Source of the DNA: Candidatus Micrarchaeota archaeon
GTDB lineage: Archaea > Micrarchaeota > Micrarchaeia > CABMEP01
Assembly (NCBI GenBank): GCA_026413625.1
Contig: JAOAKO010000004.1
Coordinates: forward strand, 1-52,253
Reading direction: 5' to 3'
DNA: 52,253 bases
The notes beneath the pieces were generated by a model. That model ran no database searches. It was not told the origin of the DNA and saw nothing but the letters and a program-made list of their open reading frames with translations. A program made the translations under genes and the position numbers. Shown here one piece after another: positions 7,248-19,660 of this stretch. How positions within the stretch are numbered: the stretch's first letter is position 1; the number at the start of each line of letters is the position of its first letter.

Positions 7248-7344
7248 GCCCCCGTAGTATAACCTGGATAGTACGCGAGCTTGCGGACATCTCGTTTCAT
7301 TTGGCAAAAAGCTTGTAATGCGGGTTCGAATCCCGTCGGGGGCG
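7248..7344 (+). tRNA. tRNA-Arg(GCG) with an intron of about 23 nt at 37/38
   Basis: Acceptor GCCCCCG/CGGGGGC, D arm GTAT..GTAC, anticodon stem CGAGC/GCTTG, loop TTGCGGA (anticodon GCG), T arm GCGGG-TTCGAAT-CCCGT, discriminator G. Confidence 0.8.
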
Positions 7345-7632: not shown

Positions 7633-7704
7633 GCCCTAGTAGCTCAACGGCAGAGCGACTGACTTGTAATCAGTAGGTTGGGAGTTCAAATCTCCCCTAG
7701 GGCT
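7633..7704 (+). tRNA. tRNA-Thr(UGU), no intron
   Basis: GCCCTAG/CTAGGGC acceptor, GCTC..GAGC D arm, ACTGA-CTTGTAA-TCAGT anticodon arm, GGGAG-TTCAAAT-CTCCC T arm, discriminator T. Starts 11 nt after the rpl40e stop. Confidence 0.9.
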
Positions 7705-7821
7705 CTGCAAATTCTCTTTTTATATATTCAATTGTAACGAAGTCGGCAAGAGCGATAAGTATTTAAATATGGACAATGTGCTATATGTATATTATTGCTT
7801 AATCATTAGATCAGTGAGCAT

Positions 7822-9839: not shown

Positions 9840-11333
9840 TTAAGCGACTTCTTGTTGCGTAGCTCTATTTTTTTTCGTATCAATCGCAGCGAAAATGTAA
9901 GATATAATGAATACTATAGATATCGCAATTACAAATGAAGGATTGTATGAGGCAACTATCGCCCTGTATCCCCCAATGTTTACAATATCTAAATACGCAG
10001 TTATATTAAATATCAGATGCAGCAATATCGCAACAAACAATCCTGGGATCAATCCGAAATGGTAATACGGCCTGTAATTTTCTCTGGATTTGAGGTAACC
10101 GAGTAACATTCCTGCGAATGCAACGAAACATCCGTGTGCCAGAGTATTAAAGAATGATCTATAAACAATTATTGAGATCCAGCTGTCAATCCCACTTGTA
10201 AGGGGATCTAAGTTTCCTACGAAATAGAACCAGTTCTCATACATTGCAAATCCAATTCCTATTGCAAATCCATAAAGAAGTCCGTCAAGTGCATCGTCGA
10301 ATTCGTGATGTCTTGAAAAAAGCGCAAGTCCGAATAGCTTCAAAAATTCTTCGATTATAGGACTTGCAACTATACTTATAATCGCAGTCATCAAGGCAAG
10401 CGGAATCATTTCCGGCCCCTTTCCTGCCAAATACATTATTAGGTTATTTAGGAAGAACGCTATCAATGCAGCAAATATCCCATATACGAACATTCCAACT
10501 ACAAACCTTAAGGGCTCTCTTTCGTATATGTCTGCGTACCATGTAAATATCATAAGTATAATTGGTATGACCAACGCTGCAACAAACGATATTACTATTA
10601 TTTCCATTTTGGTTATTATATCATAATTCTGATAAGTTGAGAATGTAACAAGACACACCAGTAAGACTGCAAAAAAGAGTATCAATGACCAAATTATTGG
10701 ATTTGTCATTGCATTTGCAATTTGCTCTCCAGGGGTTTTTCCATATGGGAATTCGAATAATGTCTTATCTGTATATTCATCTTTTTTGCCATAGCGCCTC
10801 ATTTCCGCATTCCTTACTACTAGAGACAGTATGAATAAAAGTACCAGAGCTATTATCGGGGAGATAACATATGCGCCTATATCCAATGCATCATAAGCTG
10901 TTTTTTCGTATTTGTTCCATGATTCTGCTATTGTAAATTCTTTGACCAGATAATTGTCTGTAATAAGCATATATCGTCCAACGTACGTTGTCACTCCATT
11001 GTAATTATATTTAATAGGTATTTGAAATTCTGCAGTTTCGTAGCCGCTCAAATTTCCAAGAACCGCCATTAGATTATATTTATTGTCATCTTTCCTATAC
11101 AGTGCTACACTAACAGTTTTATTTTCTTCATTTGAAATTGTTACGTTGTGAGTTATTAAGCACGGATTCTCAGTGCATACTATTCCAATAGGATTTATTT
11201 CAGCATTCAATTGTCCTTTCACTATACTTTTATTTTCATGTATAATCAGCTGATTTGGAAATGCTAGGACTGTTGAAATTAAAATGAATTGAATGATAAG
11301 GCTTGTTGAAATGGAATTACTCTTTAGATGCAT
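9840..11333 (-). CDS. PrsW-family intramembrane protease with an N-terminal extracytoplasmic domain
   Basis: Signal/anchor plus an ectodomain of about 150 aa, then a polytopic region carrying PIIEEFLKLFG and ...HHEFDDALDGLLYGFAIGIGFAMYEN... plus a later LAHG, as in PrsW (EExxK / HxxxD-type motifs). Confidence 0.72.
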   Translation of the reverse strand: MHLKSNSISTSLIIQFILISTVLAFPNQLIIHENKSIVKGQLNAEINPIGIVCTENPCLITHNVTISNEENKTVSVALYRKDDNKYNLMAVLGNLSGYETAEFQIPIKYNYNGVTTYVGRYMLITDNYLVKEFTIAESWNKYEKTAYDALDIGAYVISPIIALVLLFILSLVVRNAEMRRYGKKDEYTDKTLFEFPYGKTPGEQIANAMTNPIIWSLILFFAVLLVCLVTFSTYQNYDIITKMEIIVISFVAALVIPIILMIFTWYADIYEREPLRFVVGMFVYGIFAALIAFFLNNLIMYLAGKGPEMIPLALMTAIISIVASPIIEEFLKLFGLALFSRHHEFDDALDGLLYGFAIGIGFAMYENWFYFVGNLDPLTSGIDSWISIIVYRSFFNTLAHGCFVAFAGMLLGYLKSRENYRPYYHFGLIPGLFVAILLHLIFNITAYLDIVNIGGYRAIVASYNPSFVIAISIVFIISYIFAAIDTKKNRATQQEVA

Positions 11334-11957: not shown

Positions 11958-12536
11958 TTGTTTATGGACATTTATATTTTGACAGGTACTCCCGGAACCG
12001 GGAAGACAACGATTGCAAAACATCTTTTAAAATATGGATTTCAAGTTATCGATTTGAACTCTTTAGTCATAAAAAAAAGGCTATGGCGCGCGAAAGAGAG
12101 AGGATGCAAAGTAGTAAATATTCCAGCTTTACAAAAAGAAGTTAAAAGCGAGATATTAAGGATGGGGAAACAATCCGACAAAGCAATCGTTATAGAAGGA
12201 CATCTTGCATGCGAGTTAAAAATTCCTGCAGATATGGCCATCATACTTAGAACAAGACCAGACATCCTTATAAAGAGATTGAAATCAAGGAAATATCCCA
12301 ATTATAAAATAAGTGAAAATGTAGAGGCTGAATTAGTGGATTACTGTACAATTAGGACGAAAGAGAATTATAACTGCAAAATCTATGAAATCGATTCTTC
12401 CAGGTCATTATCTAGCACTCTTAAAGAAGTTGTATCCATAATATCAAATAAAAAAATACCCGATAAGCGATGGGACAAAATAAATTGGCTAAAATATTTT
12501 GAACATCCAAAAGTTTCAAAATATCTATATAAGTAA
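11958..12536 (+). CDS. Fap7/adenylate kinase 6-like nucleoside-triphosphatase
   Basis: P-loop ILTGTPGTGKTT at the extreme N-terminus, and ILRTRPDILIKRLKSRKYPNYKISENVEAE resembling the AK6/Fap7 LID region. Size about 190 aa. Confidence 0.7.
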   Translation: MFMDIYILTGTPGTGKTTIAKHLLKYGFQVIDLNSLVIKKRLWRAKERGCKVVNIPALQKEVKSEILRMGKQSDKAIVIEGHLACELKIPADMAIILRTRPDILIKRLKSRKYPNYKISENVEAELVDYCTIRTKENYNCKIYEIDSSRSLSSTLKEVVSIISNKKIPDKRWDKINWLKYFEHPKVSKYLYK

Positions 12537-13046
12537 TTGGAAATGGTAAGTTTTAAAATTTCACTTTCAATTATTACTTGGGATATGATGCTAAAAAACG
12601 ATCAAGCGTTTCGATTTAAAAAAGGACAGGTGGCATTTGAGACTATACTAATAGTTGGATTCATATTTCTGCTTCTTATCCCGCTTCTATTTATTTTGTT
12701 CAGTCGAGCAGTATCTATTCAGGATGAATTAGCTACCATAGAGACCTCTCGATCACTGTTTACCCTATCTTCTGCAGTAGATTCTGTAGGTGTTCTTGGA
12801 CCAAACAATAGCATAACTGTGGAAGTAAGCTTTCCTAGCAACATAAAAAACGTTTCGATAGGGAGAGACAGCAACAGGGAGATTTCTGCAGTATTGTCAA
12901 CTTCTTTGGGGGATATTCATATAGTTAAAATGACGCAATTCAATATCTCTGCAGAAGGGTTGCCTGAACAGTTTAAATCCGGCAGATATACATTTAAGAT
13001 AATTTATTCTGAAATGGAAAAACAGATAAAAATAAGCCTAAACTAA
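12537..13046 (+). CDS. class-III signal peptide (archaeal type-IV-pilin-like) protein
   Basis: FRFKKG|QVAFETILIVGFIFLLLIPLLFILF has a basic leader, a G|Q cleavage context, Glu at +5 and a hydrophobic helix. The true start is probably an internal ATG (12543 or 12585) rather than the listed TTG. Confidence 0.62.
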   Translation: MEMVSFKISLSIITWDMMLKNDQAFRFKKGQVAFETILIVGFIFLLLIPLLFILFSRAVSIQDELATIETSRSLFTLSSAVDSVGVLGPNNSITVEVSFPSNIKNVSIGRDSNREISAVLSTSLGDIHIVKMTQFNISAEGLPEQFKSGRYTFKIIYSEMEKQIKISLN

Positions 13047-13076: not shown

Positions 13077-14255
13077 TTACTCATTTTCCGGCTTTCCGGG
13101 ATACAGATCTCCCTCTTGAATCTGTATGGAAATACTTCTCAATTTTCCAAATCCGCTTTTCTTACCTTTAAGCTTTTCTTTTTCTTGCTTGATTTTTCTA
13201 TCCGCTTCCCTTAAGACTTCTTTGAGGGCAGCAAAAAGCTTCCAATCGTAAGAACTAACATCGAAAGTTTTCCTTCCTGCAACTAACATTTTCATCGTGT
13301 ACTTGTGTCTTCTACCTGTTGTAGAATGTTTCTTTATGTTTAATCTTATGAATTCAATCGGCATTATTTGTTCGCAGGATTTTGCAAATTCATTCACTTC
13401 CTTATAGATATCGTCTTTGTAAGCCTTGTCTTCTTCATCTAATCCTATAATCTCGATAGCGGTTTCATGCTTTGGTATGGCTGCCTTAATTATATCTACT
13501 GCAGTTATGATTCCGAATTTGCCATCGCCTTCTGCAAGCAAAGACGTTATATCATTTTTCTTCATAAGTTTAGCAGCCTCTCTTAGCGAAGAAGAGGGCG
13601 ATATTTTGATCAATCTTGGAGACGATCCTACGACAGTTTGCAGTAGTATAGAGCTCGTTTTGGCCTTTTCCCTCCCCATCGGTACCTTAGTTTTAACTTT
13701 CTGAACAAGAGGAGTTATGTCTATACTGCTTACAATCGCAACAGGTTTATTATTTTCAGTTATAAGTAGGTGATGCTTTCCCTCTTTTCTCATTTTTGCA
13801 GCTGCTTTTGATACGCTTTCCTTTATATCCATCTTTTCAATTGGCACGCTCATTATTTCCTCAACCTTCATTGGAGGAATCTTATCCTCTCCGATTAGTT
13901 CTTCTAATACATCTATATTCTTAATTAGCCCTATTATTGAATCCCCATCAACCAATGGCAATTCCCTGTATCCTTCTACAAACATTGACATTTTCTTTTC
14001 AAGCGAATCGTCTTGTCTTAGCAATGGGGCCTTCCATGCATATTTTTCAACCTTTGCATCAGGAACGTATTGAATCGTCTTTAAAGTCCTATCGGAGAGA
14101 ATCCCTATGTACTTGCCGTTTTTTTGAATTATTATAGTGGTAACACCCTGTTCCATTAGTTTCGCAGCCTTAGACATCAGCTCATTCGCATCAAGTATCA
14201 CAGCAGGTCTTATTATCATATTTTTCACCTTATTTATTTCGATAAGAAACATCAT
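13077..14255 (-). CDS. four-CBS (two Bateman modules) protein with a C-terminal HPF/RaiA (S30AE)-like domain
   Basis: Four CBS-like repeats by eye. The C-terminal stretch of about 100 aa, IEIIGLD..YKEVNEFAK..IEFIRLNIKKH..KYTMKMLVAGRKTFDVSSYDWKLFAALKEVLREADRKIKQEKEKLK, mirrors the beta-alpha-beta-beta-beta-alpha layout and terminal helix of HPF (E. coli ...QDMYAAIDGLIDKLARQLTKHKDKLK). Start set at the internal ATG to avoid a 58-nt overlap with the upstream gene; the listed ORF extends to 14309. Confidence 0.65.
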   Translation of the reverse strand: MMFLIEINKVKNMIIRPAVILDANELMSKAAKLMEQGVTTIIIQKNGKYIGILSDRTLKTIQYVPDAKVEKYAWKAPLLRQDDSLEKKMSMFVEGYRELPLVDGDSIIGLIKNIDVLEELIGEDKIPPMKVEEIMSVPIEKMDIKESVSKAAAKMRKEGKHHLLITENNKPVAIVSSIDITPLVQKVKTKVPMGREKAKTSSILLQTVVGSSPRLIKISPSSSLREAAKLMKKNDITSLLAEGDGKFGIITAVDIIKAAIPKHETAIEIIGLDEEDKAYKDDIYKEVNEFAKSCEQIMPIEFIRLNIKKHSTTGRRHKYTMKMLVAGRKTFDVSSYDWKLFAALKEVLREADRKIKQEKEKLKGKKSGFGKLRSISIQIQEGDLYPGKPENE

Positions 14256-14524
14256 TGTCTTTTTATGAAGGATCTTAGCAAGAAGAAATTGCTGTCTGAC
14301 ATTATGCATTCGATTTCATTCTTAATTCCTACTGTATCGTATATAATGATTTTTGCCCTGATCTTTCCAAGTTCTTTTCTCTCAACTATAATTGCGTCAT
14401 AGAGATAGCCAATCGGAACTGTGAGTTTTAGATCCCGGTGCCTAACCGAGATATTGTCATTATCTATGCTGATTTCTCCAGCAGGAGTTCCAAACACATC
14501 TGAAAAAATAGGTATTTTTACCAT
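14252..14524 (-). CDS. hypothetical small protein (90 aa)
   Basis: ORF immediately upstream of, and apparently co-transcribed with, the CBS gene. Mostly beta-like sequence. No family recognised. Confidence 0.4.
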   Translation of the reverse strand: MVKIPIFSDVFGTPAGEISIDNDNISVRHRDLKLTVPIGYLYDAIIVERKELGKIRAKIIIYDTVGIKNEIECIMSDSNFFLLRSFIKRQ

Positions 14525-14575
14525 ATTTATTTTTTGTTGCGAACCATTTAAAAATTATACTATCAACATATTTTT

Positions 14576-15088
14576 ATGGTACGCAATCGTAATTCTTTAA
14601 CTATAAAAGGACAAGCTGCAACCGAGTTTTTAGTGACATACGGCTGGGCGATTCTATTGGTGCTAGTGATAATGGCAATTCTTTATTCATCTATATTTAA
14701 GCCAGAATTTTATGTTGCCGAAAGATGCGACATAGGGCCTGGAATTACATGCGATAACTTTTATCTTAATAAGACCAGCGCAGGACTCAATTTTACTCTT
14801 TATGCGCACAATTCAATGGGTTTCGACATAAATATAACAAGTATTAATTTTACACTTGAAGACAGAATCAACAATAAAAAATATTCAAAGCAAATCGGAC
14901 CTTTTACTAAAGTAATCCAAGATAGAGACTCTTTCAATACAAGCTTAATTTTTGAGGTGGACAACCTTCAAAGTGTTGCCCCCGGAACGCTCTATTCAAT
15001 ATTTTTCACAATAAAATTTAAGAACAATGAAATCTCCTCCCCCCCAGAACATGTGACCGCAGGGGTAATAAACATAAGAGTCGCCTAA
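14576..15088 (+). CDS. class-III signal peptide (archaeal type-IV-pilin-like) protein
   Basis: MVRNRNSLTIKG|QAATEFLVTYGWAILLVLVIMAILY is a canonical basic leader with KG|Q, Glu +5 and a hydrophobic helix. TATA-like 'tttaaaaattatac' lies about 25 nt upstream (leaderless). Confidence 0.7.
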   Translation: MVRNRNSLTIKGQAATEFLVTYGWAILLVLVIMAILYSSIFKPEFYVAERCDIGPGITCDNFYLNKTSAGLNFTLYAHNSMGFDINITSINFTLEDRINNKKYSKQIGPFTKVIQDRDSFNTSLIFEVDNLQSVAPGTLYSIFFTIKFKNNEISSPPEHVTAGVINIRVA

Positions 15089-18760: not shown

Positions 18761-19660
18761 GTGATGCTAATGATGCGCTTAGTTGTTTTAGGTTCTGGCG
18801 CGGCGGTTCCGTCTCCAGAAAGGAATCTTACATCAATAGCTTTAAGGTACGAAGGAGACGTATTCCTTTTCGATTGTGGCGAAGGTACACAACGCCAGAT
18901 GATGAAATATAAAATAAGCTATTCAAAGGTAAGAATGATACTAATTTCCCATTTGCACGGGGACCACATTTTCGGTATACCTGGGTTGCTGTATACTCTT
19001 TCGATAGAAGAAAATAAAAGAAAGGAGCCATTGCTTATAGCCGGCCCAAAGGGAACAGAAAAAAGAATAAGAGAATTGGTATCAAAGGATATTCCATTTC
19101 TTAAAATTGAAGAAATAGATGAAGGGTGGAACATAGATCTTGGCAGTGCGGTTATCTATGCATTTAGAACAAATCATTCAAACAATGGAGTGTCATTGGG
19201 TTATGTATTCGAAGAGAAAGAAACACTGAGATTTGACAAAGAGAAATGCGAAAAATTAGGTATTAAAGGAAAAATGTTCAAAATTATTGAGAGCGAAGGA
19301 TACATAAAATTAGGTAAGAAAACGGTGAAGATGGAAGAAATTACATACAAGAAAAAAGGTAAAAAAATCGTTATAACTGGAGATACTGCCTATTCTGAAA
19401 ATACTATTAAACATGCAAGTGGTTCCGACATTCTTTTCCACGAAGCAACTTTTATGGAAGACATGAGAGATAAGGCTGACGAAGATTTTCATTCGACAGT
19501 GATGGATGCGGCCACAGTTGCTAATAAAGCAAGAGTCAAAAAACTTGTTTTGTATCACATCGGCAACAGATATAAAGACGACAAAGAAATAGAAGACGAG
19601 GCAAAGAAAATATTTGAAAATACGGTAGTGGCAAAAGACGGACTTGAGATTCACTTATAA
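18761..19660 (+). CDS. rnz: ribonuclease Z (tRNA 3' endonuclease)
   Basis: VLGSGAAVPSPERNLTSIAL...FLFDCGEGTQRQM and the metallo-beta-lactamase motif SHLHGDHIFG. The likely true start is the ATG at 18770, since 'gtgat' lies 4 nt upstream. Confidence 0.9.
   Translation: MMLMMRLVVLGSGAAVPSPERNLTSIALRYEGDVFLFDCGEGTQRQMMKYKISYSKVRMILISHLHGDHIFGIPGLLYTLSIEENKRKEPLLIAGPKGTEKRIRELVSKDIPFLKIEEIDEGWNIDLGSAVIYAFRTNHSNNGVSLGYVFEEKETLRFDKEKCEKLGIKGKMFKIIESEGYIKLGKKTVKMEEITYKKKGKKIVITGDTAYSENTIKHASGSDILFHEATFMEDMRDKADEDFHSTVMDAATVANKARVKKLVLYHIGNRYKDDKEIEDEAKKIFENTVVAKDGLEIHL

Follow-up and report, generated by a model that had tools for sequence, protein, structure and literature searches.

The window analyzed here is a stretch of 52,253 nucleotides from a Candidatus Micrarchaeota archaeon. 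It possesses a minus-strand gene whose relatives carry in the databases the names 'CBS domain-containing protein', 'acetoin utilization protein AcuB' and 'dehydrogenase', the closest of them being labelled 'MAG: CBS domain-containing protein [Candidatus Micrarchaeia archaeon]'. The question raised by this locus is whether the product is a generic CBS-domain regulatory protein or a factor which hibernates ribosomes. A preliminary description, made from the letters alone, had read the product as a CBS tetrad fused to an HPF/RaiA-like domain, and this reading is supported by sequence, profile and model evidence. The gene is very probably the Candidatus Micrarchaeia orthologue of HibA, the ribosome hibernation factor which is also known as AHA and as the SriA-RaiA/HPF fusion. 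This family was published by three groups in 2025-2026 and is present in 42-47% of archaea (PMC13324472, PMC12934967, PMC13454478). The fusion of CBS and HPF domains, which the preliminary description had implied to be novel, was already in the literature of those years under these three names. The inference from raw sequence independently reproduced that discovery, in which a bacterial-type HPF joined to an AMPK-gamma-like CBS sensor hibernates archaeal ribosomes.

Extent of the gene

The minus-strand ORF spans 13077..14309 and encodes 410 aa when counted from its first ATG; all the features given below with coordinates lie on the same strand. The G+C content of the window is about 35-43%. 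Taking the ATG at 14255 as start, as was done in the preliminary description, gives a 392-aa product. The relatives pointed to another ATG further downstream. MIIRPA or a near variant of it (MMIRPA, MLIRPA) forms the N-terminus of 15 aligned relatives which are called from that point (identity 40-81%). The called protein of the window itself begins in the same way; this start corresponds to the ATG at 14219 and to residue 13 counted from ATG 14255. A Shine-Dalgarno-like AGGTGA was read in the sequence at 14225..14230, 5 nt upstream of ATG 14219, and a GGTG situated 4-7 nt before the hibA start is kept in 7/7 loci. At locus L001, the counterpart of ATG 14255 is closed off by an in-frame stop. 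Because of the MIIRPA start of the relatives, the conserved GGTG and the in-frame stop of L001, the coding sequence was set at 13077..14219, encoding 380 aa plus the stop and beginning 36 nt downstream of 14255. The starts at 14255 and 14309 were dismissed, since neither is conserved among the relatives or loci. The practical gain is one of annotation, in which a 'CBS domain-containing protein' becomes hibA with a corrected start.

Domain organization of the protein

The CBS module occupies residues 1-248 (13476..14219) and is composed of four tandem CBS motifs representing two Bateman modules, as recognized by PF00571, Foldseek and sequence motifs. Pfam PF00571 matched four CBS stretches with an E value of 1.1e-25. 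Four repeats had been placed earlier at residues of about 30-280, and this numbering is right when counted from the 410-aa ORF. The AlphaFold2 model of the full-length protein, built with 20 homologues and having a mean pLDDT of 80.6, contains four beta-alpha-beta-beta-alpha CBS units up to about residue 248. The best Foldseek matches of this model were CBS tetrads, namely SriA/B (9znf_4), 3ddj with AMP, Dri (9e6q_3) and AMPK gamma, and MJ1225 was also among the tetrads matched. Ribose-binding-type motifs of the pattern G-h-h-T/S-x-x-D are found in CBS3 (S164/D167) and CBS4 (G236/T239/D242) and are conserved across the family. The CBS3 and CBS4 motif sites are where ATP and AMP bind in HibA (PMC13324472). 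The CBS module is presumed to be the adenine-nucleotide-binding part of the protein and to contact the large subunit.

A long loop between CBS3 and CBS4 is a feature of the HibA family, and it is present here as a 20-residue basic insertion. It comprises residues of about 173-192 (QKVKTKVPMGREKAKTSSIL, 13644..13703) and is by alignment the counterpart of the 'PTC loop' of HibA. It aligns with residues of about 187-207 of P. abyssi HibA, in which the PTC loop is defined as residues 190-207 (PMC13324472). Within the Micrarchaeia clade the basic loop QKVKTKVPMGREK is unchanged, with K176, K178, P180, M181, R183, E184 and K185 invariant among 12 close relatives. The pLDDT of the AlphaFold2 model falls below 50 at residues 176-189, which is consistent with a flexible loop.

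The HPF/RaiA (S30AE)-like domain is located at 13170..13460 on the basis of model topology and profile searches. The C-terminal part of the AlphaFold2 model consists of a strand (254-258), a helix (264-282), three strands (288-299, 305-315 and 318-325) and a last helix (328-350, all in the 380-aa numbering), and this order is the HPF order. The model boundaries are the same as those proposed earlier, where the domain was given as residues of about 284-380 in the numbering of the 410-aa ORF. The terminal amphipathic helix had also been aligned with that of E. coli HPF, and the HMMER alignment to 4v8h_AX gives an identical register. The C-terminal dimerization domain of long HPF was found neither by Pfam nor in the AlphaFold2 model. 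In the full-length Foldseek search against a PDB copy extending to 2026-04-08, the best 50 matches contained no HibA entry, and the HPF domain was swamped by the CBS tetrads.

Profile searches gave a graded picture of this domain. The preliminary description had proposed a check with the S30AE/RaiA profile, which gave significant matches with many relatives and a match below the cut-off with the single sequence. With the protein alone, PF02482 scored 15.6 bits (E 0.028; cut-off 23.7) and TIGR00741 scored 14.2 bits (E 0.046; cut-off 40.9); both matches are below the curated thresholds, and each spans nearly the whole profile. PF02482 matched nine of 15 close relatives, the best with an E value of 9.6e-6. 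Among the full-length relatives, all 72 contain CBS domains and 38 matched PF02482 individually. In an alignment of the window's domain with 50 stand-alone proteins, 34 of the 51 sequences did so.

A profile of 15 domain sequences, searched against the PDB sequences, matched the C-terminal domain of P. abyssi HibA (chain 9sr9_H) best, with an E value of 6.8e-6, and the bacterial HPFs 8rd8_D, 4v8h_AX and 2rql_A were three of the next four matches (E 0.1-0.4). A dynein chain ranked second among the PDB matches of this profile. The 51-sequence alignment (A6) was also used as a profile against the PDB sequences. It matched 9sr9_H with an E value of 2.5e-15 and 9l96_a, a second chain of the HibA type, with 2.8e-5. 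Bacterial HPFs were recovered by the same profile, with E values of 2.8e-5 for 8uu4_w, 5.4e-5 for E. coli HPF (4v8h_AX) and 1.2e-4 for 6qbz_A. Nine further bacterial chains were below about 2e-3, and about a dozen bacterial HPFs in all had E values of 3e-5 to 1e-3, with coverage of nearly the whole domain. Besides 8uu4_w and 4v8h_AX, 12 chains of the bacterial HPF/RaiA family, named as HPF, RaiA/protein Y or ribosomal subunit interface protein, were below 1e-2.

The word-indexed homologue searches had returned only the close Micrarchaeia clade and two distant proteins. The bridge to the wider family was made by an exhaustive HMMER search, in which the 15-sequence profile was run against 1.84 billion representatives at E <= 1e-3. 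This search yielded 439 clusters carrying the domain. The best 150 of them include 68 long proteins (340-420 aa) in which the domain is C-terminal and 50 short, stand-alone ones (95-150 aa), and these two architectures are the two which the published papers describe.

In the 72-member alignment, 97% of the family have a tryptophan (W326) where the last helix begins. K306 and Y307 in the hairpin and the basic positions along the last helix are conserved family-wide, and the positions of K306 and R341 are occupied by lysine or arginine in 89% of the members. The insertion in the beta2-beta3 hairpin is present, with HSTTGRRHK here and KFRGVHL in P. abyssi, and gives an excess of five residues over E. 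coli HPF. The first archaeal insertion (SAL, residues 283-285 of HibA) is represented by a gap in the Micrarchaeia protein. Deletion of both archaeal insertions from HibA did not abolish its activity (PMC13324472).

Taken from the profiles and the model, the C-terminal domain is assigned as a divergent HPF/RaiA (S30AE) domain. Since the PF02482 and TIGR00741 scores are below their cut-offs, it represents a divergent archaeal branch of the superfamily situated outside the bacterial family as curated. Homology with HPF is supported by the profiles, with the HibA sequences as intermediates. The alternative is that the protein is a generic CBS-domain regulator, in which the C-terminal region is an unrelated oligomerization or effector domain with a superficial likeness to HPF. 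All database names of the relatives are of that kind, and the single-sequence PF02482 match is below threshold. A name of this sort is also carried by a proven member, however, as the P. abyssi orthologue is annotated 'Dehydrogenase' and was seen bound to the ribosome by cryo-EM (PMC13324472). Besides HibA, the profiles matched more than 12 different chains of bacterial HPF/RaiA along the entire domain, the model has the HPF order of strands and helices, and many relatives match PF02482 significantly by themselves. The domain-profile search and the full-length family-profile search described below effectively refute this alternative, which we regard as extremely unlikely. The match to HPF/RaiA, which the preliminary description had made the deciding point, is significant at the profile level and no rival fold appeared.

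Relationship with HibA and other hibernation factors

When the whole protein was searched against the PDB sequences, it matched P. abyssi HibA, chain 9sr9_H (392 aa, deposited as 'Dehydrogenase'), best, with an E value of 7e-15 and a collinear alignment of query residues 20-360 with chain residues 16-373. The entries 9SR9-9SRF and 9T7H represent the structures of P. abyssi HibA and of its complex with the ribosome (PMC13324472). A full-length family profile of 72 members, which include the window's protein, matched 9sr9_H in one stretch (profile 2-370, chain 5-383 of 392) with an E value of 2.6e-86, and the other HibA-type chain, 9l96_a, with 4.3e-70. A literature search found no paper on PDB code 9L96. 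The CBS-only chains of Dri and Sri gave weaker matches with this profile, between 1e-46 and 1e-39, and over the CBS part only.

Madru et al. (bioRxiv 2025-10-11; Nat Commun 2026, PMC13324472) named HibA as a protein of four CBS domains and a C-terminal HPF/RaiA-like domain, found in 47% of archaeal genomes. [quoted passage not shown] HibA inhibits translation in vitro, and its deletion leads to late recovery from stationary phase (PMC13324472). The CBS module binds AMP (Kd 12 uM) with higher affinity than ADP, and ADP with higher affinity than ATP; AMP or ATP caused no marked change in the conformations of HibA on the ribosome (PMC13324472). The coupling of translation shutdown to energy charge, as suggested in the preliminary description, is a hypothesis even for the characterized HibA. 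Souza et al. (PMC12934967) named AHA in Haloferax volcanii, with two bound AMP molecules, and related its CBS tetrad to AMPK gamma and its C-domain to HPF. According to the paper on the Sri proteins (PMC13454478), 42% of archaeal species and some Patescibacteria possess the SriA-RaiA/HPF fusion. The orthologues which have been studied are HibA of P. abyssi and T. barophilus (PMC13324472) and AHA of H. volcanii (PMC12934967).

In comparison with P. abyssi HibA (Pab0961, Q9UYR4), the Micrarchaeia protein has the same architecture, a similar size (380 against 392 aa) and collinear homology over the full length. Both have the long basic CBS3-CBS4 loop at the position of the PTC loop and the insertion in the beta2-beta3 hairpin (STTGRRHK against KFRGVHL). 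The identity between the two is only about 20-25%, as judged by eye over the single-sequence alignment. The Micrarchaeia protein differs from HibA in the absence of the SAL insertion and in a tail which is about 20 aa longer and contains G[DE]LYPG. Its host belongs to the DPANN Micrarchaeia, whereas P. abyssi is a free-living hyperthermophile, and a conserved gene of PH-like fold is present immediately upstream here. AHA belongs to the same family, having an AMPK-gamma-related CBS tetrad and a C-terminal HPF domain with a terminal helix longer than that of E. coli HPF, and the Foldseek matches of the Micrarchaeia model to AMPK gamma mirror the observation made for AHA (PMC12934967). Unlike the Micrarchaeia protein, the haloarchaeal protein is acidic and its loop is much longer.

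With the bacterial HPF/RaiA proteins (YfiA, protein Y and the N-terminal domain of long HPF), the likeness consists of profile homology over the whole domain and of the terminal basic helix. The bacterial proteins are stand-alone or carry a C-terminal dimerization domain, while here the domain is placed C-terminal to a CBS module of 250 aa; it also has the extra hairpin insertion, and the invariant tryptophan is a glutamine in E. coli HPF. The factors composed of CBS domains only are Dri (P. calidifontis, 9E6Q/9E7F), SriA-D (M. acetivorans, 9ZNF-9ZNI) and ARC-P/ARC-A (Methanolobus). They possess CBS tetrads related to the N-terminal module, to which these tetrads came closest in structure and, after the HibA chains, in sequence, and their CBS discs and loops occlude ribosome sites. 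They have no HPF/RaiA domain, and Sri and ARC are pairs of separate CBS proteins. Assignment of the window's protein to the Sri, Dri or ARC group was rejected, as it contains an HPF domain, has no CBS neighbour and finds its best matches in HibA chains. A dual-factor reading of the ARC type was dismissed as well, because an ARC pair consists of two CBS proteins lacking HPF, and the gene next to hibA encodes a PH-like protein.

[quoted passage not shown] The N-terminal disc of four CBS domains would be placed on the 50S side, from where the basic CBS3-CBS4 loop could reach the peptidyl-transferase centre. Starved or stressed cells would thereby keep their 70S ribosomes inactive yet protected. 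For the CBS module, binding of AMP, ADP or ATP is probable in view of the published ITC and cryo-EM of the orthologues. The sequences themselves show the domain architecture, the homology with HibA and bacterial HPF and the conservation of the loop and of the nucleotide-site motifs. That the Micrarchaeia protein binds ribosomes and nucleotides and inhibits translation is inferred from its relatives only, and the role could differ in detail, as DPANN biology is reduced and unusual.

C-terminal tail and the upstream PH-like gene

The C-terminal tail consists of residues 351-380 (KGKKSGFGKLRSISIQIQEGDLYPGKPENE, 13080..13169). It is basic at first and then contains the motif G[DE]LYPG, which 18/18 proteins of the Micrarchaeia clade have and which is absent from the other proteins fetched. 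With 55 aa from the conserved tryptophan to the C-terminus (family median 34), the tail is the longest in the sampled family, and columns 363-380 of the 72-member family alignment have more than 75% gaps. The tail has a pLDDT below 50, and residues 353-380 are disordered in the AlphaFold2 model. P. abyssi HibA has its C-terminal end at the channel through which the mRNA exits, close to the SD:anti-SD duplex (PMC13324472). As a speculation, the longer basic tail could reach further along this channel.

The 90-aa ORF directly upstream of hibA (14252..14524) encodes a small protein of PH-like fold, as predicted by AlphaFold2 and Foldseek. Its model, with a mean pLDDT of 94.6, has seven strands and a C-terminal helix, and its best Foldseek matches were PH domains, namely Sin1 (3voq_A, TMq 0.66, E 2e-3) and Rtt106, at TMq of about 0.65. 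Pfam and NCBIfam gave nothing significant for this ORF. Its relatives form 24 sequence clusters with 44-88% identity, and the few named ones are all from Micrarchaeia. In 7/7 loci examined the ORF immediately precedes hibA and has the same orientation, also where the flanks differ by Rce1-like, NUDIX or PRPP-synthase insertions.

The preliminary description had proposed that the two genes are co-transcribed through an overlap of start and stop. The ATG at 14255 does overlap the stop codon (A|TGA) of the 90-aa ORF, but because hibA starts at ATG 14219 this ATGA overlap is not real, and the genes are separated by a spacer of 32 nt (14220-14251; 24-65 nt in the relatives), in which only the SD-like motif is found. 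Co-transcription across this short spacer is itself plausible and probable. The TATA-box-like element ATAATTTTTAAAT lies at 14546..14558, centred about 28 nt upstream of the ATG of the 90-aa ORF, and is conserved across the seven loci; it is a candidate promoter for the unit of the 90-aa ORF and hibA. A scan for bacterial sigma-70 promoters and terminators gave no more matches than shuffled sequence, and its consensus is a bacterial one which does not apply to an archaeon. The neighbouring genes encode the PH-like 90-aa protein and pilin-like ORFs, none of them with CBS domains. The surrounding syntenic block contains genes for an RNase Z-like protein, GluRS, an FMN-dependent dehydrogenase family protein, Memo, an AAA_18 kinase-like protein and PrsW. 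As the whole block is syntenic in closely related genomes, adjacency gives weak evidence of a functional link.

The tail and the PH-like neighbour, neither of which is reported for the characterized HibAs, could also hint that this HibA homologue has a main role other than stress hibernation, such as constitutive storage or stabilization of ribosomes or a function off the ribosome. Pull-downs of Thermococcales HibA (Pab0961/TK1186) contained proteins of DNA replication and recombination (PMC13324472). Against such a role, the elements which contact the ribosome are kept, namely the basic residues of the HPF domain, the invariant tryptophan and the basic PTC-type loop, and no data point to another role. 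A different main role is accordingly considered improbable, and a HibA-type ribosome hibernation factor remains the preferred reading. Within it, the Micrarchaeia HibA may act as a two-component module together with the PH-like 90-aa protein. This idea comes from the same-strand adjacency in 7/7 loci, the shared candidate promoter and the occurrence of both the tail and the partner, as far as sampled, in this clade only, and it is a tentative one which we hold to be rather unlikely.

The only leads which go beyond the literature are the tail peculiar to this clade and the PH-like gene in front of hibA. If the two-component idea is true, the pair of HibA and the PH-like protein would be a DPANN-specific regulatory layer, undescribed for HibA or AHA. 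The full-length factor with its PTC-type loop is kept in a DPANN lineage with reduced genomes, and its retention therefore suggests that ribosome preservation matters even in cells which are probably host-dependent.

Gene neighborhood of hibA

The hibA gene, coding for the archaeal ribosome hibernation factor HibA, lies in a syntenic block which extends from 9840-11333 (-) to 18761-19660 (+) in the window, as found by comparison with the Micrarchaeia loci L001-L006. The genes in this block are ordered as PrsW protease, AAA_18, pilin-like, hibA, PH-like, pilin-like, Memo, FMN-dependent dehydrogenase family, GluRS and RNase Z-like. The block is largely collinear among Micrarchaeia contigs at a HibA identity of only 41-81%, and the breaks in collinearity are small lineage-specific insertions. 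In all related loci, the AAA_18 gene (11958-12536, +; 192 aa; AAA_18 match, E 1e-20) keeps its place as the second gene downstream of hibA. Such P-loop proteins are frequently annotated as adenylate kinase-like or Fap7-like. Outside the block, ARAGORN identified tRNA-Thr(TGT) of normal length (7633-7705) and tRNA-Pro(CGG) (7248-7344, +), whose length of 97 nt implies an intron. Introns are common in archaeal tRNA genes.

PH-like and pilin-like ORFs adjoining hibA

The 90-aa ORF at 14252-14524 (-) adjoins hibA on its upstream side in all seven loci compared and was found only in Micrarchaeia-type contigs. Pfam and NCBIfam searches assigned no family to it. Its fold is confidently predicted to be PH-like (pLDDT 94.6), and the PH domains of Sin1 and Rtt106 were the top Foldseek matches of the model. 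The hibA/PH-like pair is flanked by two ORFs, 12537-13046 (+) and 14576-15088 (+), which are syntenic in related loci with lengths of 148-187 aa and had no match in the Pfam search. In both, the N-terminus has the pattern K-G-Q-(V/A)-A-x-E with a hydrophobic stretch behind it and, by eye, resembles a class III (type IV pilin-like) signal peptide of archaea.

C-terminal tail and a second solved HibA-type chain

The C-terminal tail of HibA (13080-13169, -; KGKKSGFGKLRSISIQIQEGDLYPGKPENE) is predicted to be disordered by the structure model and exceeds the median length in the family by about 20 aa. It carries the motif G[DE]LYPG, kept in 18/18 members of the Micrarchaeia clade and not found in the other HibA family members sampled.

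PDB chain 9l96_a (406 aa), deposited as 'CBS domain-containing protein' and also present in entries 9l98, 9l9c and 9l9v, possesses the full HibA architecture and matched the family profile over its full length (E 4.3e-70). Its sequence is acidic and looks haloarchaeal. As a literature search by the code 9l96 found no citing paper, these entries may represent a fourth independent structural study of the HibA family.
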